NCBI GenBank assembly: GCA_051532055.1
Contig: JAOPTX010000032.1
Location: 32,001-96,000 of the forward strand
Reading direction: 5' to 3'
DNA from: Fibrobacterales bacterium
GTDB lineage: Bacteria > Fibrobacterota > Fibrobacteria > Fibrobacterales > JAOPTW01
Length of the DNA: 64,000 bases
Below are positions 7,384 to 24,878 of the stretch, one piece after another. Each line of letters opens with the position of its first letter. The first letter of the stretch is position 1. Position numbers and translations under genes: made by a program. The notes beneath the pieces were generated by a model. The model saw nothing but the letters and a program-made list of their open reading frames with translations, was not told the origin of the DNA and made no database searches.

Positions 7384-7962
7384 TTATAGCGAGAAGTAAA
7401 GCTCCAAAGAAAGAGAGGTCACATCAAGAACCCCAATTGACTCATTCTCAAATGCATAGAGTAAGTAGGATTGGAGCGTCCCTGCGCTCACTGAAAACCC
7501 CAACTCATCCACGACGCCAACCCCCTCCATAAGGAGTACCGACAGCCCTGTATAGTAGCCAATACGAATACCCGATGGCCAATAATAGGATCTAAACCGG
7601 TCGTTTACAATAACATCATATTGGGGCGACACAATTGTATTCACCGCAACATGGGGTACAATACCGATGGAGCTTCCTAATACAGACCCAACATTAATGG
7701 TTACTGGTTCAAATCGCCCTTTTATTGCAACACTATGCACCGACACTCCCCCCAAAGCTTTGGGCGTGTACCCGTAAGAGATAGATCCATAGAGATGGTT
7801 CGTAAAATAGCCATAGCCAACACCTACCGACACCACCCCCTGATGCCCTGCATATTGTACTAAATAACGATCCGGCGCATACCATGTGTCGTTTGTACCA
7901 ACAGAACCCTCAGACGCCATTACGACACCAACGCATACAAAGACAAGTATGACCCACTTCAT
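7384..7962 (-). CDS. putative small outer-membrane beta-barrel protein
   Basis: Signal peptide, amphipathic strands (QYAGHQGVVSVGVGYGY), aromatic C-terminal strand; 1-bp overlap with the upstream gene. Confidence 0.55.
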   Translation of the reverse strand: MKWVILVFVCVGVVMASEGSVGTNDTWYAPDRYLVQYAGHQGVVSVGVGYGYFTNHLYGSISYGYTPKALGGVSVHSVAIKGRFEPVTINVGSVLGSSIGIVPHVAVNTIVSPQYDVIVNDRFRSYYWPSGIRIGYYTGLSVLLMEGVGVVDELGFSVSAGTLQSYLLYAFENESIGVLDVTSLSLELYFSL

Positions 7963-8780
7963 CAGAACCCCAGCTCTTGATAGGTGTAGGCACTATCGTT
8001 AAAATTAAGTAGAAGCACAGAATGGCCCGTTACATCGTCTGCTACAAGATATTGAGTCGAACTTTCTGGATAAAAAGCATGATTATTAAAGGAGTGTGTA
8101 TGCCCATGCACCGAGAGCATGACGTCTTTTTCATCTAAAAGTGCAACATACTTAATTTCATCATCGGAAGTAAACTGATCCTTCCACGGTGGCACATGCG
8201 AAAAGAGTACCTGTCCCTTACACTCAACCCCACAAAGGGTAGGATCAGAAAGAGACTGTTCAAGCCATGGAAAATTAGGCGCATCATCAAAATGCCACCC
8301 ATTGGTGTTAGCAAATACAAAGTGATAGCCCCCATAGGTAAAGGAGTAATCAAGTGCACCGAAAGAGTACTCATAGACCGCAATCCCCTCTGCAACACTT
8401 TCATGATTCCCAATAGTAGTGACATAAGGAACAGTAAGCTTATCTATTGCATCAAAAAAGAACTCATACTCTTTGAGGAGTCCAAACTTTGTAAAATCAC
8501 CCGGTACCACTACAAAGTCTACCCCCTGAAGCGAATTAACGAATGAGACCATCTTATGTAAATCATCAATGAATTGATGAGAATCTGTTATCACTGCAAC
8601 CGTGACTCCTTCCCCTTTAGGAGTCGTAGAAATTATTTTTCCTACTTCTCGCTGAGTGAGGTTGTGCATAGCTCTGTTCGAACTTTCAACCGTATAGGGA
8701 GTATATTCAAACATTTCACAATTCACAAGTAACAGTACAGCTAACCCAATAGTAAAGTACCTTTTGAATGTATTCATCAT
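7962..8780 (-). CDS. calcineurin-like metallophosphoesterase lipoprotein
   Basis: DSH, GD, GNHE, SH and GHTH motifs; lipobox-like LVNC. Confidence 0.9.
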   Translation of the reverse strand: MMNTFKRYFTIGLAVLLLVNCEMFEYTPYTVESSNRAMHNLTQREVGKIISTTPKGEGVTVAVITDSHQFIDDLHKMVSFVNSLQGVDFVVVPGDFTKFGLLKEYEFFFDAIDKLTVPYVTTIGNHESVAEGIAVYEYSFGALDYSFTYGGYHFVFANTNGWHFDDAPNFPWLEQSLSDPTLCGVECKGQVLFSHVPPWKDQFTSDDEIKYVALLDEKDVMLSVHGHTHSFNNHAFYPESSTQYLVADDVTGHSVLLLNFNDSAYTYQELGF

Positions 8781-8786
8781 CGACTC

Positions 8787-9362
8787 CTAAAAGGTATATC
8801 CCACATTAAATTCAGTCCATCTAAAGGTCTTATAATCATTAAGCAACAACCCATTACTTTCAAGACGAAGCTCTATGTTCTTATATTGTATCCCGGAACC
8901 AAGACGCATGTTCATGTGGAGATCTTGAGATGCATAGCGATCATCTCGGGTAAGACGTGTATGACTTACTACTGAAAGACCGGCACCTGCAATACCACTC
9001 ACTGCTAGAGATTGAGTCACCTGGTAGAAGGGCTTAACCTGAGGTGTCACTTTATATATATTTGCAATGGTTGTTGTACCCGAGCGTTCTTCCGATATCG
9101 TTGAAAATCCAACCTGCCCACCAACCGCAATACTTTTTGAGAATGAACGGTACCGATCAAAATTGACATTCTGACCCGTGGACACCCCTTTACTAAAGCC
9201 AAGTGGTGAACGCTCCCCCTCCATCATCGCATCCTCCCCCTTTAGGTCAAAAGGAACTACTCGTGTAATCCCAATAGAGATTGATGAACCGACAGGAGAT
9301 GCCGCCACAAATAATGGAAGTGCCACAAAAATTATTAGTGCTATTTTTATAAATCGTATCAT
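8787..9362 (-). CDS. putative outer-membrane beta-barrel protein
   Basis: Signal peptide from ATG 9362 (MIRFIKIALI), beta-strand pattern, C-terminal FNVGYTF. Confidence 0.6.
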   Translation of the reverse strand: MIRFIKIALIIFVALPLFVAASPVGSSISIGITRVVPFDLKGEDAMMEGERSPLGFSKGVSTGQNVNFDRYRSFSKSIAVGGQVGFSTISEERSGTTTIANIYKVTPQVKPFYQVTQSLAVSGIAGAGLSVVSHTRLTRDDRYASQDLHMNMRLGSGIQYKNIELRLESNGLLLNDYKTFRWTEFNVGYTF

Positions 9363-9585
9363 ACTTAGTTTCCCCAAAAGTTTTAGTCACCCCTATAACA
9401 CATGAGATGAAAAAATGTGTCACCCTTTTATCACAATGACTCTTTGAGTGTAACTTACGAAAAAGGCAACCATTAGACAATGCTAATATTGTATCATTGT
9501 GTAACAAAGTGTATCAGGGCACGATTATCAATTCACCTCTCAATAACTGAATGCGTGGCAAGTGGCAGTACCGTTGGGATACAAC

Positions 9586-12517: not shown

Positions 12518-12544
12518 AAAAAAAGGGAGCTTCGTAAAGCTCCC
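12518..12544 (-). terminator. intrinsic terminator
   Basis: GGGAGCTT-CGTA-AAGCTCCC stem with a 7-U tract on the minus strand. Confidence 0.75.
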
Positions 12545-12567
12545 CCATATTTCATTGAATTAGTCGA

Positions 12568-12780
12568 TTAAATAACCTCTACATCCACTTTTTTGATCCA
12601 AAACTGCTTTCGTCCGGTATCAATCTTTACTGCTGTAGGCTTAAGAGCCACGACCTTTGCAGCACCGGTATCATAGGGGCCCTCAAACATAACTCGATCA
12701 CCGATTTTAATATCTTGTTTTTTTCGGTTTTCTTCTTCATTTAAATCAATATCATTATCAAATTCATTTTCATCGCTCAT
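12568..12780 (-). CDS. small hypothetical protein, acidic N-terminus plus KOW/SH3-like strand pattern
   Basis: ATG 12780 after a GGGG RBS; IKIGDRVMF...GAAKVV pattern. Confidence 0.6.
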   Translation of the reverse strand: MSDENEFDNDIDLNEEENRKKQDIKIGDRVMFEGPYDTGAAKVVALKPTAVKIDTGRKQFWIKKVDVEVI

Positions 12781-12902: not shown

Positions 12903-13988
12903 TTACTGGGCAAATCTCAATGATACTGTTTCATGCCCCACTGAATCCCTCATTACATCTAAAACCTCAACCAAATACAGCCCCTTATCAGTTTGAGTAA
13001 CAAACTGCTGACCAACTGATTCTATTGTAATGTGATTCTTAGCTGGGACATGCTGAGCGTCACTCACTTTTTCAAAAAAGTTATTAAGTATCATAAAACG
13101 GCTTATATCACCTTTTTGTGTAATAGCCCTATCAACACCTAAAACATCGTAAAACTCTGTCTTCGAATAATTAAGTGAATCTTGAAGATATACATTTTCA
13201 ACTGACGCACTCAAATTCGTGCCCTCTTTCCCAGCATACTGCTTTAAAAAGTCTAGGGATGAAATCATAATGGTTGAATCGAAAGAAGTGATCATCATAT
13301 CAAGCTCACCTGATTTACTCTCAACCACTTGCCAATAAGGGTAGTTCGCATTGCTGTCAATATCAAACAGCGATTCAAATGCACCAGAGGCAAATGTAAC
13401 ATCAAAGTATTCTACTGCTTTTTGGTCTGTTGTGTCACAGTGGGTTTCTCCATCTATGTAAATTTGTTTAATAATTGATGCCCCATATGTTTCAACTCCA
13501 TATTTAATTGAATGGACTCTTGTATAAACACTTATTTTATAAATACCCGCACACAATTCCTTAGGCCTCAGTGTTACCGTTTGGGACAATACAGTTGAGT
13601 AACCTTCAACTATTGTATCTATAAAAAATAGAGAATCTATTTTTCCATATTCATCAAAATCATCATATTCGTACGTATAACCACTTGTACTTATCGGTAA
13701 TCTCTTATATGATGAATTCACACTCACTGCATGCTCATAATTGTTTTTGTGACCTTTATAAATGTCTGTTCTTGCCTCAACCACAATACTATCACCTGGA
13801 AACAAAACTGTTATTAGGGTATCTTCTTCATACTCTTTGTAATCTGTAGATTCGTCCCAACGAGTGGAATCAAATTTCATTGTTAAATAGTTACTCCAAT
13901 CCCTGTCAGGGCCATCAATCTCAGCATCAGCATTCTGAAGCTGACAACCTACCGCACACGCTGTAAGTAATAATATAATCCATTTCAT
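12903..13988 (-). CDS. hypothetical lipoprotein, last gene of the ECF/caspase operon
   Basis: Lipobox AVGC, AGGAG RBS, 10 bp downstream of the caspase gene. Confidence 0.7.
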   Translation of the reverse strand: MKWIILLLTACAVGCQLQNADAEIDGPDRDWSNYLTMKFDSTRWDESTDYKEYEEDTLITVLFPGDSIVVEARTDIYKGHKNNYEHAVSVNSSYKRLPISTSGYTYEYDDFDEYGKIDSLFFIDTIVEGYSTVLSQTVTLRPKELCAGIYKISVYTRVHSIKYGVETYGASIIKQIYIDGETHCDTTDQKAVEYFDVTFASGAFESLFDIDSNANYPYWQVVESKSGELDMMITSFDSTIMISSLDFLKQYAGKEGTNLSASVENVYLQDSLNYSKTEFYDVLGVDRAITQKGDISRFMILNNFFEKVSDAQHVPAKNHITIESVGQQFVTQTDKGLYLVEVLDVMRDSVGHETVSLRFAQ

Positions 13989-13998
13989 ATTTAACTCC

Positions 13999-15636
13999 TT
14001 AAAAGATATTAACGGTCAAACCAACCTGAGCACCCGGCCACATATACAACCCATCTGCAACATTATAAAACCTACCGTACGAACCACCCCATGGACGAGC
14101 TAAATATATGTGATCAAAATTTGCCAACAGATTTGCCGAAGCACCAAACCAAAAACTCACCCAATTCGTCACATCCACATCAACAATTCCAGACACGCGA
14201 GCAAGAAACTCATCATGGAATTCATTGTCCCATGGTTCCGCATACCAACTAGTAGACTCACCAGCCCCATCAAACCCCATATGGCCATTTGGCTCATAAT
14301 TACAATACAACCAATACCCCTGAAGCAACCCCTTTATTGAATACCAGCCTCTATCACTGCTATACCCCAATCCAACACCACCACTATAGTTCCCCCCAGC
14401 CTTATTATAGGGGTCATAGCCAAAACTTACCATACCAAACCATGGCCCTCTCTCCATACTCACATCTATATACCAAGTACCTAACTCCGAAAATGAACTC
14501 CCGACATTCAAACGATTCTTAATAGAATCACTTTTTGTCTGCAATAATTCTGCACTCACGCTGGTGCTATCAATAATATTTTCAGTAGATACGCCTCCCC
14601 CGCGCAACCGAGTATCTTCAACGGCACTCTCAGTAAAATCTTCCTCACTCAAAATCACTCGCACCACACCCTTTAGATCTGCCGTCGCCTTTTTCCATCT
14701 CGTATCATTCTCAAGGACAACAGTATACACTTCATTAGAAAGCCCCAACTCCACTATTCTTCCTGGAGCCTTATACATCTCGGTAACTAGCGTACCATCT
14801 TTTGACTTTACAAAGATTCTCCCTGCAACATTTTTACCAAAGACAATACCCTTATCATTATTTCTCAGATCAGACATTACAACGTCTCCAGATCCAGATA
14901 GTTTCATATCATAACTCGGGTGTTGCGCCCCACCAGATGTATTTTGTGTTCTATTCAACGTTTCGTTAAAGGCAAACTGATAGGCCTCCCCTAAGGTAAT
15001 TCTCCCATCACGACTCACATCAGCCGCCCCTCGCATACCCGACACAAGATAGTGAGTAAAGAATGAACCACCAATGGCCTCAGATTCTTGAGATGCCTCT
15101 GTATTAGAACTTGAAGTAATAAATGCATAGCCCGAAAGGTCATTTGAGGCATCAACCAAAAAGGCCTGTTTGCGATACCCACCCTTCATTTGTGTTATCG
15201 CCCCCGATGCGCACGCATCAAGAATCGTCACTTTCAGTTGCGCCGGAAGCTTATCAATATCTTTTCTGAGTACTCGATAATCGTAATTATCATTTCCAAA
15301 AAAAAGACCATTCTCATTTGCATGACCTGAAAAATAAAGGACAATCTCCCGCCGATTCTTTGTGGGCAGGCCATCCAAGCGAGCAGACAGATCGGTGAGT
15401 GCACTATTGAATTTTTCGGCACTGGGCTCAAGGAGCATTGTTTGGTTCTCTTTGGGGACACCCCCAATTTCTGTGAGTACCCGGCCAACATTTTGTGCAT
15501 CAGTGTGAGCATATTTTAAGAGGTCTCGTTTTGCACCGCCGTAGTTTACGCCAACTATGATTGCGTATCGCTCAATCTCTTGTAACGCGAAGAGGGATGA
15601 ACAAAGTATTAATATAAGACTTACACCTATTTTCAT
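13999..15636 (-). CDS. exported caspase-family (peptidase C14, metacaspase-like) protease with a C-terminal beta-rich domain
   Basis: Signal peptide; RYAIIVGVN, LKYAHTDA, catalytic YFSGHA and ILDACASG, GSFFTHYLVSGMRGAAD, QHPSY. Confidence 0.9.
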   Translation of the reverse strand: MKIGVSLILILCSSLFALQEIERYAIIVGVNYGGAKRDLLKYAHTDAQNVGRVLTEIGGVPKENQTMLLEPSAEKFNSALTDLSARLDGLPTKNRREIVLYFSGHANENGLFFGNDNYDYRVLRKDIDKLPAQLKVTILDACASGAITQMKGGYRKQAFLVDASNDLSGYAFITSSSNTEASQESEAIGGSFFTHYLVSGMRGAADVSRDGRITLGEAYQFAFNETLNRTQNTSGGAQHPSYDMKLSGSGDVVMSDLRNNDKGIVFGKNVAGRIFVKSKDGTLVTEMYKAPGRIVELGLSNEVYTVVLENDTRWKKATADLKGVVRVILSEEDFTESAVEDTRLRGGGVSTENIIDSTSVSAELLQTKSDSIKNRLNVGSSFSELGTWYIDVSMERGPWFGMVSFGYDPYNKAGGNYSGGVGLGYSSDRGWYSIKGLLQGYWLYCNYEPNGHMGFDGAGESTSWYAEPWDNEFHDEFLARVSGIVDVDVTNWVSFWFGASANLLANFDHIYLARPWGGSYGRFYNVADGLYMWPGAQVGLTVNIF

Positions 15637-15694
15637 ACTGTTCCCTTAGTAATAAAATCGTAATTAAGTTTTTTCTCTATTTTTTTGTGAGCGG

Positions 15695-16477
15695 TCATAA
15701 ATTACTTTTCACCTCACCCTTTACCAACACAATTTTCTCAACTTGAAATATCTCATCTTGAGTGATAGTGTTCAAAATGTTATTTTGATTTACATCCAAA
15801 TACGTGTCAACATCAAAGCTATCTGAACTCAAAACCATATAAAAGATCTCATGAGACGGCGCATCATCAAGTTGGTATGAAAAGGGAAGAAGTCGCTTGA
15901 GAGAACCCAGCTTCACCGAACTTCCATCTTCTTTTGCCAGATGATGAGTCACCACACCATTACCATCAACTGAAAATATCACGCCATGACACTTTTCCGT
16001 TACCACATACTCAAGCTGAAACTCGTCACCCGCACTCACAAGCATACTATCTCTCATAAGACTCGAACCCAACCGTGTCTTTTTGTACACATTAAGCTGA
16101 GCATCTAATCCTTTAATGCGCACAACCTCTGCTGTAGTACTCGTCATTCGACCCTCAAAAGGACTCATTGATTTATAAGTAACCGTCACCCCAAAGGCCA
16201 TAATAAGGGTTACCAATATCCCCTTAGCAAAAGTCACAAATGCAACACCCTTTCTTTTTTTATGGATACTCTTACGGTGAGCACGCTCTTGCCGAATCAC
16301 CCCCTCCATAGCCACATAGGGAAACCGCTCTCTCAGATCATGGTTATTCTGCTCCAACAATACCACACGACGCTGTAATTCTGCATCATTAGAAATTTTG
16401 CTCTTTAACTCCACAGACTCTGACTTCGAGAGATCTCCCAATAAATATTGTTCTAAAGTAAAATCATCATACTTCAT
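15695..16477 (-). CDS. putative membrane anti-sigma factor (ActD-like / DUF4384-like periplasmic domain)
   Basis: N-terminal LEQYLLGDL helical anti-sigma-like domain, one TM, then RIKG, AGDEFQLEY, IFSVDGNGVVTHH, SYQLDDAP; overlaps the sigma gene. Confidence 0.75.
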   Translation of the reverse strand: MKYDDFTLEQYLLGDLSKSESVELKSKISNDAELQRRVVLLEQNNHDLRERFPYVAMEGVIRQERAHRKSIHKKRKGVAFVTFAKGILVTLIMAFGVTVTYKSMSPFEGRMTSTTAEVVRIKGLDAQLNVYKKTRLGSSLMRDSMLVSAGDEFQLEYVVTEKCHGVIFSVDGNGVVTHHLAKEDGSSVKLGSLKRLLPFSYQLDDAPSHEIFYMVLSSDSFDVDTYLDVNQNNILNTITQDEIFQVEKIVLVKGEVKSNL

Positions 16478-16949
16478 AAGTAAATGCCTCCCTCGAAAAC
16501 TCCTGCAATTTCTTTAACCGTTTCCTTACAGCAGGAATTGACATTTTAAAAAACATTGCAACGTCTTCTACCTTCCAGCCATCCCGATAATGCATCACCG
16601 CCATTGCTGCACTTTTTTCATCATTTCGCGATAACACTTTATTCAGAAATGACCTTTCGTTCACAATGGTCAAGGTACACTGCGCATCTGCTATGAGCTC
16701 AAGAGCGGGCTCTTCACACTTTATTTTTGAATCCCTAATCATATTCAATGCTCTATTAGTCGCCATGGTATACAGAAGACTCGAAGGTTGAGTAACATCA
16801 AGAACCTCCCATTTAGTGTGCACTGTCAAGAACGTATCATGCATACAATCCGCCGCCATCTCTTCATTTTTTAACATCGAATAACAACGCCGATATACCA
16901 TCGGACTATACTGTGTATAGAGCTTTTCGAATGTTGTTTTGTTTTTCAT
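16467..16949 (-). CDS. ECF RNA polymerase sigma factor
   Basis: Region 2 (LYTQYSPMVYRRCYSML...AADCMHDTF...LYTMATNRALN) and region 4 HTH (DGWKVEDVA...AVRKRL). Confidence 0.9.
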   Translation of the reverse strand: MKNKTTFEKLYTQYSPMVYRRCYSMLKNEEMAADCMHDTFLTVHTKWEVLDVTQPSSLLYTMATNRALNMIRDSKIKCEEPALELIADAQCTLTIVNERSFLNKVLSRNDEKSAAMAVMHYRDGWKVEDVAMFFKMSIPAVRKRLKKLQEFSREAFTYEV

Positions 16950-17337
16950 CTATATCTTAAACACATGAATATGTAGAAAAGAAACCACTTCTCTATTTTT
17001 TTTGCGAAATGTAGTAAATCACCCTATTTCAGTTATTAAACCTATCATAAACGCCGCATTAATAGACCCACCCTAATAAAAAAGGAACATTATCCCATTT
17101 ATACTTAAACATCAAAACCCCAATAAAACACTACGAACACACCTTAAACACCTTTTTAAACATTTATAGGCCAAATTGTCTCCCTTTTCTATAAACACCC
17201 ATTATCAATAAACCAATAATGTTCTAAAGTTCTTTAAACAATAAATGACTTGAATCTGAATGGCCTGTCTTTGAAACATTTGACGCTTACACACCCTCAT
17301 TCAAGCCAGCATAAATGAACAACAAAAGGAACCAATC

Positions 17338-18855
17338 ATGAAAAAAGTATTACCACTTATAGCAACCGCATCATATGCAGCATTTATGATGTCATGTCAA
17401 ATCATAACACCTACCCCTACAGAAGATCTTTTAAGTAGCTCTGCTATAGCGACTGGGGACAGCACTATCGTTTCATCAGAAACAACACTATCGTCAGCGA
17501 CTGCACTCTCGTCTTCTCCATTTGACACCATTATCATCTCTTTCTCATCTGCCGAACTTTCATCGTCAAGCGAAACTGTAACACCAGAATCAAGCAGCAA
17601 TGTAGTCGTTGTACCTGACTCAACGTTCCTCAGCTCTTCAAGTACAGAACTCTCATCTTCTGAAGTCATCGCACCAAGCTCAACCATAAGTTCATCGATT
17701 GCACTTTCTTCTGCCGAAAGTTCTTCAGCGATTGAGTCTTCATCATCTGTGGTTGTTGTAAGCTCATCTTCCCTAGAAAGCTCTTCTTCTATAGAAAGTT
17801 CATCTTCTGTCAATCCACTTCCTCCCTTTATCAATGCAAACCTTGTTAATGCAATAGACACTGCGACCCCATTTACTAATGGCGCCTCTACTAACTCACT
17901 TTACAGTAGTCAATACGCGGCATGGAAAGCATTCGACAAAGCATCACCTTCTACCCAATGGATATCAGGCCATGTGTTTCGCCCTGGAACAGGCCCTGCA
18001 AACCTCATGTACACCTTTGGTGAAGAACATAAAATTGTTGAATATCGCATCGCAAGCCGCTTTGATTCTCTCAAAGATCGCGCACCAAAAAACTGGGTTT
18101 TACAAGGGTCAAATAGCAACACGGCAACAGCTGCTGATGCAATCGATGACACACAATGGGCTACTATTGACACTCAAAACGACATCAACTCTGGCGACGA
18201 ATGGGGATCAACTGACAACTGGAAAGACACCATCGCATTTACCGTACAAACTCCAGGTATATACACCAGCTACCGCCTTTGTGTAACCGCCGTTAACGGA
18301 TCTTCTGTTGTAGATATTATAGACATGTTCCTCATGGAAGAAGCACACGCCAACATCACCATTCCAACAACTGAAACCGACACCCGCACATCATCAAACG
18401 GTACTTATGGAAGTAGCTATCCAGCATGGCATCTCTTTGACGGCGCATCTACATGGACCCAATGGATGTCAGCAAGTCTCTTTCGCCCAGGAAATGGCCC
18501 TGCCAACATAAGCTACAGCTTCGATGACGAACAAATGGTAACTCACTACACCCTTACCGGTAGATATGACAGCCTTAAAGATCGCCTCCCTAAAAACTGG
18601 ATAGTTCAAGGCACCAATAGTGCCACTGCCACTATCAATGACGCTCTTGATGCCACAACATGGACAACTGTTGACACCCGCACTGACATCACTACTGATG
18701 ACGAATGGAACTCTGAAACAAGCGTTGCCGAACTCACCCTTATGGTTACCAATCCAGGCTCATACACTACCTATAGAATTTGTATTACTGCAGTAAACGG
18801 GTCATCGATTGCTGATCTTATTGAAATCTCATTTGCAGGAATACCTGCCATCTAA
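17338..18855 (+). CDS. lipoprotein with Ser-rich linker and two tandem discoidin/F5-8C-like domains
   Basis: MMSC lipobox; duplicated AW.[AL]FD...TQW.S...PKNW..QG.N...Y..YR.C.TAVNG; AGGA RBS. Confidence 0.75.
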   Translation: MKKVLPLIATASYAAFMMSCQIITPTPTEDLLSSSAIATGDSTIVSSETTLSSATALSSSPFDTIIISFSSAELSSSSETVTPESSSNVVVVPDSTFLSSSSTELSSSEVIAPSSTISSSIALSSAESSSAIESSSSVVVVSSSSLESSSSIESSSSVNPLPPFINANLVNAIDTATPFTNGASTNSLYSSQYAAWKAFDKASPSTQWISGHVFRPGTGPANLMYTFGEEHKIVEYRIASRFDSLKDRAPKNWVLQGSNSNTATAADAIDDTQWATIDTQNDINSGDEWGSTDNWKDTIAFTVQTPGIYTSYRLCVTAVNGSSVVDIIDMFLMEEAHANITIPTTETDTRTSSNGTYGSSYPAWHLFDGASTWTQWMSASLFRPGNGPANISYSFDDEQMVTHYTLTGRYDSLKDRLPKNWIVQGTNSATATINDALDATTWTTVDTRTDITTDDEWNSETSVAELTLMVTNPGSYTTYRICITAVNGSSIADLIEISFAGIPAI

Positions 18856-19129: not shown

Positions 19130-21160
19130 TTAAAAGTTATATCCAATTTTACCCGAAAATTCACGACTAGATCCAGGTAGAGGGGTATCATACCCATCAT
19201 AAGCTTCTGCCATTTCATAATTTTCATTCAAAATGTTATACGCTCCAACGGTAAGACTTACCCTATCAAAGAATACTGACTCCCAATTCAACACTAGATC
19301 AACCATATATACACGGTCAAGTTCTTTGTATTGAAAATCTGGAATCCAATTACCTAGTGCATCATATTCATACCCATAATCAGCCCAGATAGCCGTACGT
19401 TCACCTACGAACCGTAGTGAGGGCGTAATATTGAGCCTATTAAATGCACGATAACTCATGCTGAGTGTTGCTTTATGTTCTGCAATCCCAAGCTTCCTAT
19501 CGGTATTTAATGGGTCTCTAAAATTCTCAGCTACCGAACCCCAGTTTCTCGCAAATGAATAATTTGATATCACACTTATATCTTTCCATTTATAACGAAC
19601 CGACAGTTCTGCACCATAGGAGCCCATACTTTTTGAATTAAGGTATAGATTTTGTTCAGCACCAGCATCCCATGTATAGATAATTGCATCACGTATTTGC
19701 ATCCAAAAAATATTTCCCTGAATCCATAAATCACCCATAGGATGGTACCCGAGTTCCGCTTCAGTTATCCAGGTAAATTCCGGCTTTATGTCTGGATTTG
19801 TCGCTACATTTAATATCGCTGGATCCCGTTGAGCCCCACTGAGCAATAATTTTAAATCCAGGTCATTTGTCATAGATCCAGTATAAGCAAGCCGAGGTAC
19901 TATAGAATTTCCATAATTCTCATTATTATTTCCTCGAACTCCTGCGGTAAATGTACCAACACCCGTACGAGCAATCAGCTGCGCGTACAACGCTCCAGTA
20001 TAGCTATCAGTATAATTATCCCCATTATAGGTAGAACTCAAGTAATCCCTTCCTATTATAAAATCATATGTAATCCCCGACAACAATTTAACATCATCAT
20101 TAATATCAACATCTACAGGTATATCCAGTGAGTATTTTTCACTACGGTCATCAATCTGCCAATCAGCATACACTGACCCATCAGAATACAACACCTCATT
20201 CGCATTCCAAGGCTTCTGTTGCTTGTATTGTATGGCCGGGTTCAACCTCAATGACGGAGATATATCCAATAAATAACTGACCTTCGCAGCATAACTGATA
20301 AACTCTGTATGATAATCAGGTACATCATATGTTGGATAAGGAAACTGGATATAATAATTATCATAGAATGCATTGATTGTAAATCCTCCGTATTCTGCCT
20401 TAACTAAAGCATTTGAAACTTTAGTCGACCCATTATCATCGTCGCTCAGATCTATATTTGCACCATATATATCATGTAGCGTTCTATCCGAATAATTCCC
20501 TTGCTCCATGCTTATAAAGGCAGAAACATTCCCCTTCTCACTCTTTGTACCAAGAAAAACATTACCGCCAGTGCGTCCTGTCATTTTTTCTGTTCTAGAA
20601 TAATATCCATTTGCATTCACATTGAGTTCTTTTGATGGATTTTTAGTTATTACCGACACAACAGCCATCTCTGCAGCCCCACCATATTGCACAGACCCAG
20701 GGCCCCGGATAATTTCAACACGCTCTATCATATCTGCACTAAAATGTTGTCCAAATGCAATTGACGCATACATTTCATCATTTACATCTATACCATCAAT
20801 AAGGAGAAGAACCTTTCCTTCACTCGCCCAATTACCCCGTATTGCAACCGAACGAACCCCTTGTAAATCCAATAAGAATTCAAAGCCAGGCACAAATTGC
20901 AATATCTCTTTTAAATCACGCAAGCCTCTTCTTTTAATCTCTTCACTGGTAACAACCGTTACAATTCCCGGTGATTCTCGCTGCGTTAGTGCGAACCCTC
21001 CTGACGCTACATTAATTGACAAATTCATAAGAACATCTAAGTCCATCTCTATGAGGTCATCCAAAGAAACGTCCTCCACCCTAATATTATCTACTTCTTG
21101 CCCCATAAGTGAAGTGGCCACAAGTAAGGTAGCTGCAATAGCGTGCACCAATTTATTCAT
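19130..21160 (-). CDS. TonB-dependent outer-membrane receptor
   Basis: Plug motifs ESPGIVTVVT, LLLIDG, IERVEIIRGPGSVQYG; C-terminal NILNENY...PGSSREFSGKIGYNF; likely start ATG 21160 overlapping the kinase stop. Confidence 0.92.
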   Translation of the reverse strand: MNKLVHAIAATLLVATSLMGQEVDNIRVEDVSLDDLIEMDLDVLMNLSINVASGGFALTQRESPGIVTVVTSEEIKRRGLRDLKEILQFVPGFEFLLDLQGVRSVAIRGNWASEGKVLLLIDGIDVNDEMYASIAFGQHFSADMIERVEIIRGPGSVQYGGAAEMAVVSVITKNPSKELNVNANGYYSRTEKMTGRTGGNVFLGTKSEKGNVSAFISMEQGNYSDRTLHDIYGANIDLSDDDNGSTKVSNALVKAEYGGFTINAFYDNYYIQFPYPTYDVPDYHTEFISYAAKVSYLLDISPSLRLNPAIQYKQQKPWNANEVLYSDGSVYADWQIDDRSEKYSLDIPVDVDINDDVKLLSGITYDFIIGRDYLSSTYNGDNYTDSYTGALYAQLIARTGVGTFTAGVRGNNNENYGNSIVPRLAYTGSMTNDLDLKLLLSGAQRDPAILNVATNPDIKPEFTWITEAELGYHPMGDLWIQGNIFWMQIRDAIIYTWDAGAEQNLYLNSKSMGSYGAELSVRYKWKDISVISNYSFARNWGSVAENFRDPLNTDRKLGIAEHKATLSMSYRAFNRLNITPSLRFVGERTAIWADYGYEYDALGNWIPDFQYKELDRVYMVDLVLNWESVFFDRVSLTVGAYNILNENYEMAEAYDGYDTPLPGSSREFSGKIGYNF

Positions 21161-23954
21161 TAATTTCATTTTCATGATCATCCTCATTTTCTTCTGCTCT
21201 GTTACGCTTTTCCAATTTCTTAAGCTCTATAATCTTTAACCACTTCTCTAACGTTTTAATAACCGAAACTGAATTAATTGGTTTTGGTATGTAATCATCC
21301 ATGCCTGCATCGAGACACTTCTCTTTATCGCCTTCCATTGCGTTCGCTGTCATTGCTATAATGGGCAACTCCGGGTTTAAAATATCTACACCTTTTTGTC
21401 GAATAACCCGTGTTGCCTTATATCCATCCATTATAGGCATCTGGACATCCATAAAAATCAAATCGTATTCTTTCTCTTTGAGAAGCTGTAATGCCTCTTC
21501 GCCATTACCTGCAATATCAGGAACAATACCCGCTTTTTTCAATACACCTATAGCCACTTTTTGATTTATTTTATTATCCTCAACCAACAAGAGACGCACG
21601 CTGGACCGAATATTTTTACTGATACTGTACTGAGTAATAATCTCTTTCTTCTTAGTGTTCCCTGGATCGACTTCGAGACCCAATGCCTCTTCTAAGCATT
21701 CATGAAGTTCACGCGCAAGAACCGGTTTAGTTAAATAGGCCGCAAAACCCATTTCTGAAAGTCGACTTACATCACCACGCTTCCCCATCGAACTCATCAT
21801 AATCAGAATAGTATCTGCAATTTCTGGGTCATTTTTAATTGCCTCACCAACCATTTCCCCATCCATTCCCGGCATCTGCATATCCAGAATTGCCACAGTA
21901 TATGGACTCCCTTTCTGCTGCGCCTCCTTTAACATAGCAATTCCAGCGGGGCCACTTTCAGAAACATCGCAGGTTACATTCCAGGCACCCAACTGTTTTT
22001 CAACTACCTTTCTATTCGTGTGATTATCATCTATGAATAGAATTTTTTCACCTTCAATATCTTTTCGATGAGCAGGAGTATAGTGTTTATCCGATTTATT
22101 CAACTCGATAGTAAACCAAAAGAGTGACCCTGTTGAACCATTATGACGACACACTTCTGAACCATGCTCTACAGGGCTCTCTACCCCTATCTCGCCATTC
22201 ATTAAAGCCACAAGCTGTTTCGAAATGGCGAGACCAAGACCAGTACCCCCAAATTCTCGGGTCGTTGAACTATCTGCCTGAGTAAATTTTTCAAAGAGCA
22301 TCTCTTGTTTTTCTTTAGGAATACCAATCCCTGTATCCCGGACCCCAATTCTTAACCGAATCGCACTTCCAATATCTTCCTCAAATTGGATACAAACAAT
22401 GACTTCACCCTGTTCTGTAAACTTAATAGCATTACCCGTAAGGTTTGTAACCACTTGTCTCAGGCGTCCTGGATCACCTTTTACATAGACGGGTACTTCA
22501 TTATCGATGCTACAAATAAATTCAACACCTTTTTCATCTGTCCTAAAGGCCATAGTATTTGCAAAACTTCCCAGCATTGAATGGAGATCAAAATCTATCT
22601 CTTCGAGGTCCAACTTGCCCGCTTCAATTTTTGAGAAATCAAGGATATCATTAATGATGGATAGGAGTGACTCGGCACTACTATGTACCGACTCTGCATA
22701 CCCTCTCTGCTCATTATCCAATGATGTATCGAGAAGTAATTCATTCATACCTAGAACTCCATTCATTGGAGTTCTAATCTCATGACTCATTGTTGCAAGA
22801 AAATCACTCTTGGCTCTACTTGCAGCCTCTGCCGCTTCAGTCTGTTCAACAAGAAATTTATTGAGGTCACGAATACGTTTTTCTTCAGTGAGATCCATAA
22901 AGACAAACACAACCCCCGTCACCACTCCCTGATCGTTGCGTATGGGGGCCCCGCTATCACTCATAAACTTTACGTCACCACGAGGCGTTAGAATCACTGT
23001 TTGATTTGAAAGTTTTGTTATAACACCTGCCCTCAATACTATTCCTACTGGGTCAGCGATCCGCTCCCTCGTCGTTTGGTTTTCTAGGGTCAATACCTCA
23101 TCAAAAAAGAGACCTTTTGATTCATCTATTTTTAAACCCACAAGTTCTTCTGCTGCAGGATTCATTCGCTCTATTATGCCTTTAATATTTGTGGTAATAA
23201 CCGATTCACCGAGGGAATCAAGAGTCGTACGCAAGTCACGTTCTTGCTCCTCAAGTTCAACTTTTGCATCATGTATAGTGTCCATGAGTGCATTAAAGTT
23301 GTCATAGAGCACCCCTATCTCATCCGTACTCTCTTTTTCAATATGTCGTGACTCATGCTCTCCTCTAGATAACTGTTCCATAAACTGAACAAGTTTTATA
23401 ATTGGAGCCGTTACTGATCGCTGTAATATATAGGCAAGAAGAAGACTCCCACACACAAGTCCCAATAATAAGAGCAACAAGGTCATGATATTTGATCTGT
23501 TTTCGGCATCCATTTTATTCGTTGAAGCAACAATATAAACCAACCCTATCCGTTGCTCTTGCTCAAAAATTGGATAGAACATGTGGAGTTCATCTTCTTC
23601 AAACCGATGTCCCGCCTGTATGTTTTTCTTCCCCTTGGGAAATTCGACATCGCCTCGGATATATTCAGAAAATACCGTAGAGTCCGCCGTATAAACGAGT
23701 ACTCGCTCAATCACATCAATTGATTCCATCGAATTGAGGTAGCTTTGAGCCACTTCACTATCATCAAACATCAAGGGAACGGTCACATATCGGCTGACCA
23801 CTTTTGCTTGTTCCATTATTGAGTTAACAAAATTGTTTCTTAAATTGGTGGCACTACGAATACTCAGTACCGTAAAACCAAGAGAAAGAGTCACAAAACT
23901 GATCCCCACTATGATCAGTAATAACTTTTTCCGTATAGAGATATTACGAATCAT
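21153..23954 (-). CDS. hybrid sensor kinase (YfiN-like periplasmic-HAMP-PAS-HisKA-HATPase-REC-REC)
   Basis: [38 protein letters not shown], two receiver domains (LDMQMP, MDVQMP). Confidence 0.93.
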
Positions 23955-24506
23955 TTATCGAGCCCCCTGCATTTTTTTGAGATAACTCAAAAGGAAGGAA
24001 CTTGCCTTAAGCCCCGAAGCCGCCATAGCCCCGGTATTCATATTAAAACGAACTTTATTATTCTCCTTGTAAAGCAGTACGTGCGCCCCCTTGTCTAATA
24101 ACTCGGGGTTTTCAGTAACAATAAGTGCATGATACTGCTTGTTTTTCTCAAGAAGAAGGTCAAAATCACTCTCACTTTTGGGAGCAATATAAATGACATG
24201 TGCCGTAAAAATAGAATCAACCAAAGAAAGTTTTTGGACCGTTGTTACCCTTTTTTTGATGGTACGACCTTCCATAGCCTTTTCAATCCAAGAAGAAAGA
24301 GGGGAGTCTCCTAATATAAATACGCTAAATTTGTCAGTTTGATCACTCTCGCTCCAAGTAATTAAGGAAACAACCTTTATGAGATAAGCTGCTTTAAGCT
24401 TATTTTCACCTGAATTTTGGCCGAAACTTGTTGAAAATGCCAATAACACTACAATGAGTAGTATGACTCCTCGTGAGTGAGGTTTTTTCTTAAAGTATCC
24501 GTTCAA
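23955..24506 (-). CDS. YfiR family (DUF4154) periplasmic protein
   Basis: ENKLKAAYLIKVVSLITW, HVIYI, KVRFNMN, GLKASSFLL; probable TTG start at 24506 after AGGA giving a signal peptide; stop abuts the kinase ATG. Confidence 0.82.
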   Translation of the reverse strand: MNGYFKKKPHSRGVILLIVVLLAFSTSFGQNSGENKLKAAYLIKVVSLITWSESDQTDKFSVFILGDSPLSSWIEKAMEGRTIKKRVTTVQKLSLVDSIFTAHVIYIAPKSESDFDLLLEKNKQYHALIVTENPELLDKGAHVLLYKENNKVRFNMNTGAMAASGLKASSFLLSYLKKMQGAR

Positions 24507-24878
24507 ACAGTATCCTAATAGAGCGGGTAGAATTCTTGGATATTTTACCAAACATTTCTCAATAAATGCCAATTTTAGCCCATATTCTCTAAAATACCCC
24601 ACATTGCTTACCTTTAACAAGCATATAATAGGCTTTAAACATTTTTCCCTATCAGAAAGGACCCCTGTAACACTCTAGCATCTTTCTAGTATTTCCTTGA
24701 ATTTCAACGATTTATGCTCACCATACAGCGGTAACAAATTGTGAACGACCAATGCAATGTAAGCTAGATTTAACTATGCCCCCCTTCCTAATTATGCTAT
24801 TTTTGAATTACTATCTAATAACCGTGGATCTCAGTCCTATTTCTCACCCCTTAAGAGAGTCCACATTAAGGAGAATCT

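Follow-up and report, generated by a model that had tools for sequence, protein, structure and literature searches.

A widespread ECF sigma factor, predicted anti-sigma and caspase-fold protease module with a predicted trans-envelope signalling role in a Fibrobacterales bacterium

Gene content of the locus

A 64,000-nucleotide stretch of contig JAOPTX010000032.1 (assembly GCA_051532055.1, positions 32,001 to 96,000, forward strand) from a Fibrobacterales bacterium, hereafter the window, was analyzed for a four-gene locus encoding a sigma factor of the extracytoplasmic function (ECF) type, a predicted membrane anti-sigma factor, a caspase-fold protein of peptidase family C14 and a lipoprotein. 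An earlier note, made from the sequence alone, had proposed that the caspase-like protein is the dedicated site-1 protease or sensor for the anti-sigma. All four open reading frames (ORFs) were found on the minus strand, co-oriented and at the positions first claimed, and the tight packing described in that note was confirmed, with an 11-bp overlap followed by gaps of 58 and 10 bp.

16467..16949, minus strand: ECF sigma factor, 160 aa (PF04542, TIGR02937)
15695..16477, minus strand: predicted anti-sigma, 260 aa, one hydrophobic segment; 11-bp overlap with the sigma gene
13999..15636, minus strand: C14 caspase-fold protein, 545 aa (PF00656); 58-bp gap from the anti-sigma gene
12903..13988, minus strand: lipoprotein (gene 4), 361 aa, AVGC lipobox in the sequence; 10-bp gap from the caspase gene

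The nearest named homologue was from a Fibrobacterales bacterium. One metatranscriptome run contained 0.22 of the sequence words, and 7 short contigs of depth 2-7 lay on the four genes and a small downstream ORF; such contigs cannot reveal transcription, strand or start.

The sigma factor and its predicted anti-sigma

The product of the first gene matched PF04542 (E 3.6e-12, residues 10-74) and TIGR02937 (53.8 bits against a cut-off of 42.9, residues 7-150), and as a short 160-aa protein with sigma-2 and sigma-4 regions only it is of the ECF type. Its gene overlaps one for a protein with a single hydrophobic segment, starting at about 76-87, as had been claimed. The sequence LEQYLLGDL lies at residue 8 of this second protein, and the zinc motif HxxxCxxC was present in 0 of 69 relatives with a transmembrane (TM) segment, in agreement with the anti-sigma-like N-terminus without zinc ligands that the earlier note had described. 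The N-terminus was modelled as helical with a predicted local distance difference test score (pLDDT) above 89, and residues 1-64 gave a weak structural match to RslA (3hug_B; Z 6.3, root mean square deviation (rmsd) 3.8, 62 aligned). A match to NF010501 (E 0.0015) fell far under its cut-off.

15695..16477, minus strand: single-pass predicted anti-sigma with an N-terminal helical domain, TM helix, disordered linker and DUF4384-related immunoglobulin (Ig)-like periplasmic domain

The low-confidence linker of the model spans residues 100-120. A Pfam search of the anti-sigma itself gave no match, DUF4384 (PF14326) included, whereas DUF4384 was detected in 18 of 81 aligned relatives at E <=0.01 (best 5.9e-06). 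Structural comparison of the periplasmic domain returned generic Ig-like matches only (best Z 9.1).

The caspase-fold protein

The third protein has a hydrophobic N-terminus, matched PF00656 (E 9.8e-14, 52 bits against a cut-off of 21.4) and carries SGHA at residue 103 and DACA at residue 140.

13999..15636, minus strand: signal peptide, then a domain of the C14 caspase fold (H105, C142; acidic D46, D140, E184), a beta-sandwich (about 270-340), a linker and the barrel
14002..14517, minus strand: predicted 8-stranded OmpA/OprF/NspA-type outer-membrane barrel, residues 374-545, terminal Phe (model and structural matches)

In the model the caspase domain runs from residue 21 to ~265 and is followed by a small beta-sandwich (272-337) and a low-confidence linker (343-367). 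Structural matches of the N-terminal domain were to pro-caspase 2nn3 (Z 16.8), metacaspase 4 (Z 15.8) and MALT1 (Z 15.3). By sequence, no solved structure was matched at E 0.001 in a profile search, and metacaspase 4 was reached at E 0.0019 when a single domain was searched. In 75 dereplicated homologues H105 and C142 were each kept in 74, with one gap each, and the pocket acids D46, D140 and E184 in 73, 74 and 75, respectively. The predicted catalytic dyad and the three acidic residues are therefore invariant apart from gaps, and the signal-peptide C14 protease with intact His and Cys that had been claimed stands. In the alignment, D46 corresponds to the Asp of GCxND, a metacaspase motif; the second Cys of that motif is replaced by Ala (Ala43 here, Ala in 71/75), which places the protein outside the metacaspases proper.

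D140 and E184 presumably serve as pocket residues, as in metacaspase and MALT1 structures, and the alignment points to an acidic specificity pocket like that of proteases with Arg or Lys at P1. According to a review, all characterised non-animal C14 proteases cleave after Arg or Lys by way of such a pocket (PMC5756287).

The C-terminal part of the protein had been overlooked. It was modelled as eight long antiparallel strands (374-543), joined by short turns at one end of the barrel and by long loops at the opposite end, with an aromatic C-terminus, and its structural matches were OprF (Z 15.9, rmsd 2.6, 129 aligned), NspA (Z 14.5) and also OmpA. PF13505 was found in 26 of the 75 caspase homologues. 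Both ends of an even-stranded barrel lie on the periplasmic side, where the N-terminal domain of this protein would then be. The caspase is therefore predicted from the model to be tethered to the outer membrane and to face the periplasm, so that it and the C-terminal part of the anti-sigma would occupy the same compartment. The earlier description of an exported caspase-family protease is to be amended in that the protein is predicted to be outer-membrane-tethered rather than simply exported. Among 63 short forms the median pairwise identity was 0.38 for the barrel and 0.66 for the protease. In 64 of 65 long forms (e.g. L001:1446-3806, minus strand), a GxQ..N repeat block separates the R/G site described below from the barrel and could be a periplasmic spacer.

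Conservation of the three-gene core

The conserved core consists of three genes, namely ECF sigma, anti-sigma and caspase. Loci were picked from the caspase side (the best 158 of more than 1000 matches, with at least 572 + 481 confirmed), and after exclusion of 35 of the 158 for short upstream DNA, the trio was present in order at 115 of the 123 loci with >=1.9 kb upstream. From the other side, 109 of 151 genomes in the phylum contained a match to an anti-sigma profile, and at 90 loci picked with it (the top 30 and 60 others chosen outside that family from ~150 listed) the caspase was the next gene in 89 and nearby in the remaining one. This profile was derived from caspase neighbours and the loci were best-scoring, so that both counts lean to this subfamily. 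The loci came from Myxococcus, Acidobacteriota, Latescibacterota, Gemmatimonadota and Fibrobacter records. Within the genome itself there are seven caspase paralogues, all seven of which follow a sigma and an anti-sigma gene in the same order. Loss of gene order had been named in advance as a point on which the proposal would fall; the order was strongly kept from both sides.

Six of the seven trios in the genome adjoin some co-oriented lipoprotein gene (that of the window by sequence). Three of the paralogous trios (L004, L005 and L006) have similar-looking lipoproteins of 765-812 aa upstream, and their sigma factors have a hydrophobic C-terminal tail, both observations being by eye. At three Myxococcus-type loci (L052, L068 and L075) the anti-sigma and caspase genes are present and the sigma gene does not adjoin them.

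A Lys/Arg-Gly motif in the predicted inhibitor and the protease

A short motif with a basic residue followed by Gly occurs once in the anti-sigma and twice in the caspase protein, and all three sites lie in, or border, low-confidence linkers of the models.

16109..16120, minus strand: R-I-K-G (120-123) of the anti-sigma, predicted site-1 cleavage K122/G123 (conservation, end of the disordered linker)
15181..15195, minus strand: T-Q-M-K-G (148-152) of the caspase, predicted self-maturation K151/G152 just past the catalytic Cys (low-confidence loop 144-171)
14599..14613, minus strand: T-R-L-R-G (342-346) of the caspase, predicted release R345/G346 between the periplasmic part and the barrel (low-confidence linker 343-367)

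In the alignment of 81 anti-sigma relatives K122 and G123 were invariant (81/81) and R120 nearly so (79/81), whereas linker positions 98-119 reached at most 32/81. In 134 dereplicated anti-sigma and caspase pairs, P1 of the anti-sigma site was Lys in 128 (5 gaps, 1 Gln) and P1' Gly in 128. P1 of the post-Cys loop site was Lys in 133 and Arg in 1, with Gly in 128 and Ser in 6 at P1'; at the pre-barrel linker site P1 was Arg in 95 and Lys in 37, and P1' Gly in 131. The anti-sigma site lies a median of 17 residues past the TM segment (quartiles 13-25, n=125). That inhibitor and protease have this motif in common suggests that the protease would turn genes on by cutting the inhibitor. An enrichment of RxKG (67/75 against 1.34 in shuffles) was discarded, since whole proteins had been compared with linkers.

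Predicted promoter sequences of the family and of this locus

The family motif GTRACA-N16-GTGTT was found with <=1 mismatch in 69 of 71 dereplicated regions upstream of sigma genes, compared with 18 of 71 on the opposite strand, and the top word pair occurred in 38 of 70 such regions against <=6 in shuffles. This motif predicts an autoregulated bipartite promoter before the sigma gene itself, as is usual for the ECF group.

16960..16986, minus strand: predicted autoregulatory ECF promoter GGTTTC-N16-GTGTT, a family-motif variant 10 nt upstream of the sigma ATG

In the window, and in the orthologue from the nearest relative, the -10 element is kept but the -35 element is GGTTTC, and in both the sigma-4 helix starts with IPA (138-140), compared with VSG in 95-99% of the family. 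The -35 element is read by the sigma-4 helix in sigma-70 proteins. Because the -35 element and the helix that reads it are both changed, this sigma is likely to be insulated from the canonical paralogue on the same contig, with one lineage as the basis. Genome-wide, GGTTTC-N16-GTGTT gave 4 matches, about chance level as estimated from base composition, and the nearest relative has only one such site under a stricter pattern.

A perfect canonical site, GTGACA-N16-GTGTT, was noted at 9397-9423 of the window (minus strand) and is conserved in the relative. It precedes genes for an unknown exported protein (8787-9377), a metallophosphoesterase (7962-8780) and a second unknown protein (7384-7962), and is a likely target of the canonical sigma paralogue. 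Candidate regulon members of that paralogue lie on genome contigs C7, C3 (two sites) and C32 and at loci L261-L267. At 5 of 7 canonical sites in the relative, the orthologous gene in this genome also has a site, including those for an NAD-binding-type protein and two secreted proteins.

The lipoprotein gene and its surroundings

The fourth gene had been presented as part of the unit. It does encode a lipoprotein with an AVGC lipobox, but it lies outside the conserved unit and is exchangeable. Its product was 32% identical to that of the nearest relative, compared with 88, 69 and 60% for the trio; homologues were found only in that relative and as one paralogue in the genome, a database search returned only the protein itself, and no Pfam or NCBIfam match was obtained. 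An atlas search gave unnamed Bacteroidota clusters and a cluster named DUF4249 at 0.93, as a lead only. A lipobox was counted, crudely, in 12 of 66 genes following the caspase. Gene 4 evolves fast and is likely to be variable cargo and a regulated output of the sigma factor.

A decayed operon (L007, contig C13, ~17265-17475, minus strand) was observed in the genome, with a promoter, 25 sigma codons fused to the end of an anti-sigma gene, and an intact 492-aa lipoprotein. The first 25 sigma codons were 60% identical to those of the window and the last 32 anti-sigma codons 38%. Its GGTTTC-N16-GTGTT site, 180 nt before the sole paralogue of gene 4, had been a candidate for an independent regulon member; it was rejected as part of a decayed copy of the same operon, because a promoter shared by descent is not independent regulon evidence. 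Retention of only promoter and lipoprotein fits the lipoprotein being an output, and is likewise not independent evidence.

12523..12546, minus strand: intrinsic-terminator-like hairpin, possible transcript end (consensus match only; 3 hits in the sequence, 2.6 in shuffled versions)

Upstream of this hairpin is a 70-aa ORF (12568-12780, minus strand) whose product is acidic in its N-terminal part and, in its C-terminal part, basic and apparently rich in beta structure; a 103-aa version from an earlier ATG gave no family match. On the other side of the locus, a divergent gene (17338-18855, plus strand) encodes a 505-aa lipoprotein with a Ser-rich linker and, by eye, two repeated carbohydrate-binding-like domains, with no family match. 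Beyond it a run at 19130-24620 (minus strand) contains, besides a gene for a TonB-receptor plug-domain protein, one for a hybrid histidine kinase and one for a small exported protein.

Proposed mechanism and alternatives

We regard it as reasonably probable that the module is a self-contained trans-envelope switch, in which the outer-membrane caspase matures itself and cuts the anti-sigma, after which RseP frees the ECF sigma. A cue at the barrel, or its assembly, would bring protease domains together, and this is the weakest step. The protease would then cut itself at K151/G152, as motif and pocket suggest, and may free its periplasmic part at R345/G346. Cutting of the anti-sigma at K122/G123 would remove the whole Ig-like domain and leave a short stub. 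By analogy, RseP would cleave this stub within the membrane and release the sigma; the genome encodes RseP (TIGR00054, 296.6 bits against a cut-off of 147.55), and an M. xanthus anti-sigma cut short within its linker undergoes degradation by RseP (PMC11506125). The sigma would finally transcribe its own operon together with the lipoprotein gene from the GGTTTC-N16-GTGTT site, giving positive autoregulation. In this scheme the gene order, the domain architecture, the invariant catalytic residues, the three K/R-G motifs and the promoter motif are results of computation, and every proteolytic step is proposed. The earlier proposal of a dedicated site-1 protease or sensor is partly supported, by the gene order, the dyad, RseP and a K-G site that stands at the expected site-1 distance and resembles the internal motifs of the protease, and is altered by an exchangeable lipoprotein and a predicted tether in place of simple export.

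An extension of this switch is put forward tentatively. The barrel, with its variable surface loops, may sense an outside cue; the caspase would activate by proximity, be shed at the R/G site, cross the periplasm and cut its own anti-sigma at the copy of the self-cleavage motif, with paralogous switches kept apart by changes in the sigma-4 helix that match changes in the -35 element.

Several points weigh against the switch. Cleavage, protease activity and sigma binding are all predicted from sequence. To get from the outer membrane to a site close to the inner membrane, the protease would have to be released or to hang on a long tether. Where the metacaspase pocket has its second Cys, this protein has Ala43, and loss of that Cys lowered the activity of AtMC9 by ~90% (PMC5756287). 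The K-G motif sits where the Ig-like domain begins, and its role could be structural or one of docking. Aromatic residues at P2 of anti-sigma and caspase sites appeared to co-vary (15 pairs with both, 107 with neither, 6 discordant, n=128), one clade having an aromatic P2 in both proteins; on the tree this amounted to 1-2 independent contrasts and was not significant (sign test p 1). Three of the 123 caspase-picked loci have the caspase alone and five are without a separate sigma gene, and the decayed C13 copy is without a caspase.

The conserved motif might instead mark a docking site. The caspase domain would then bind the periplasmic part of the anti-sigma through RxKG and shield it, self-cleavage would only mature or detach the caspase, and a general periplasmic protease would act at site 1. 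The cleaved N-terminal domain of FoxA binds and protects FoxR (PMC11637429), and the many invariant residues of the Ig-like domain outside the motif suggest a binding surface. However, the anti-sigma motif copies the basic P1 and Gly P1' of both internal sites, the dyad is invariant, and a bound, intact copy of a substrate motif would be expected to get cut. We consider this account unlikely.

A similarly low probability is given to the caspase being the output of the sigma rather than its trigger, that is, an induced envelope protease with other substrates in defence, predation, envelope remodelling or death, for which cutting of the anti-sigma is only feedback. The caspase gene does lie downstream of the predicted sigma-dependent promoter, and an anti-phage island is under the control of a related ECF pair that has a CHAT domain (PMC11506125). 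An output would usually be exchangeable, like gene 4, whereas the caspase accompanies its anti-sigma at 89 of 90 loci and in all seven diverged paralogues. The non-defence role that the earlier note had assigned to the caspase was not established.

It is very improbable that the caspase domain is displayed outside the cell in the manner of an autotransporter and never meets the anti-sigma. The GxQ..N block of 64 of 65 long forms resembles autotransporter passengers, but the eight-strand model matches OprF, NspA and OmpA, barrels of a type with no open channel for a passenger, and the invariant motif on the periplasmic linker of the anti-sigma would be left unexplained. Least probable of all is a catalytically silent protein whose K/R-G motifs are structural and whose barrel signals by conformation only, since the dyad and three acidic residues are invariant and pseudo-orthocaspases lose the dyad (PMC6426788), notwithstanding the caution raised by Ala43 (PMC5756287).

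Relation to known systems

As read here, the module works like regulated intramembrane proteolysis with a cell-surface-signalling layout, yet falls outside both the FecIRA and the DdvA systems. RseA-DegS-RseP is regulated intramembrane proteolysis of an anti-sigma; the present module resembles it in a single-pass anti-sigma, a predicted site-1 cut in the periplasmic linker and an encoded RseP. Here the site-1 cut would fall to a C14 cysteine protease that is encoded alongside, dedicated to this task and carried by an outer-membrane barrel, whereas there it is made by an inner-membrane PDZ serine protease, or by PrsW.

FecIRA and FoxIRA likewise combine a sigma, an anti-sigma and an outer-membrane protein with a cleaved-off periplasmic N-terminal domain (PMC11637429). 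Here the barrel is 8-stranded rather than a TonB-dependent transporter and has a C14 protease as its N-terminal domain; genes 2-3 gave no Pfam match to Plug or FecR, which places the module outside FecIRA. The DdvS-DdvA pair of M. xanthus also shows an ECF sigma, a transmembrane anti-sigma, a periplasmic caspase-fold domain and a proposed linker cut followed by RseP, DdvA being proposed to cut itself via its periplasmic CHAT domain (PMC11506125). In DdvA a TPR-CHAT region with an incomplete site lies inside the anti-sigma, which is zinc-binding (PMC11506125), whereas in the present module the C14 protease is a protein of its own, has a complete dyad and is carried by a predicted barrel; the 260-aa anti-sigma has no CHAT match, and with HxxxCxxC in 0/69 relatives the module is not of the DdvA-DdvS type. 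In the Csx29-Csx30-CASP-sigma system of type III-E CRISPR, a caspase-fold protease was demonstrated to cut a sigma inhibitor and so activate transcription; unlike the present module, that system is cytoplasmic, RNA-triggered, of the CHAT family and CRISPR-linked (PMC10028731).

Among classified sigma factors, ECF25 is similar in its single-pass anti-sigma at position +1, which there contains DUF4384 (matched here in relatives), and in its distribution, which includes Fibrobacteres, Deltaproteobacteria and Gemmatimonadetes (Casas-Pastor 2021, PMC7826278). Compared by description, the s1/s2 promoter of ECF25 is GGAAC/GTC as against GTRACA/GTGTT here, and the available text of that classification does not mention a caspase (PMC7826278). 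For ECF54, regulation by CHAT proteases encoded nearby has been proposed, and cytoplasmic EACC2-caspase systems also adjoin ECF sigmas.

Operons of sigma-70 and metacaspase genes were catalogued in 2012 in M. xanthus DK1622, other Deltaproteobacteria, Ralstonia and Fibrobacter (Asplund-Samuelsson 2012, PMC3501461). They very probably represent the same gene family as this module, given a sigma and a C14 protease in one operon and Fibrobacter by name (PMC3501461); the available part of that account does not describe an anti-sigma, barrel, motif, promoter or mechanism. The earlier statement that no mechanistic description is known thus agrees with the literature search, although the gene association itself was already in print (PMC3501461). 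No description of a barrel-anchored C14 protease as a site-1 enzyme was found in the literature searched, with subscription papers and bioRxiv supplements outside its scope. Within that literature the module is real, widespread, catalogued and mechanistically undescribed.

For most bacterial caspase homologues no substrate or role is known. The module offers a named substrate, an exact bond (K122/G123) and two sites of self-cleavage, together with a protease acting downstream and a promoter that could drive a reporter, all of them predicted and all directly testable. If the switch is as proposed, an outer-membrane-anchored site-1 protease would be added to the known routes of ECF activation, and the paralogues with their separate promoters would be natural orthogonal switches. 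Should the barrel also prove to be the receptor of an outside cue, the module would represent a new trans-envelope signalling route and would give a signalling job to a large class of bacterial caspases.

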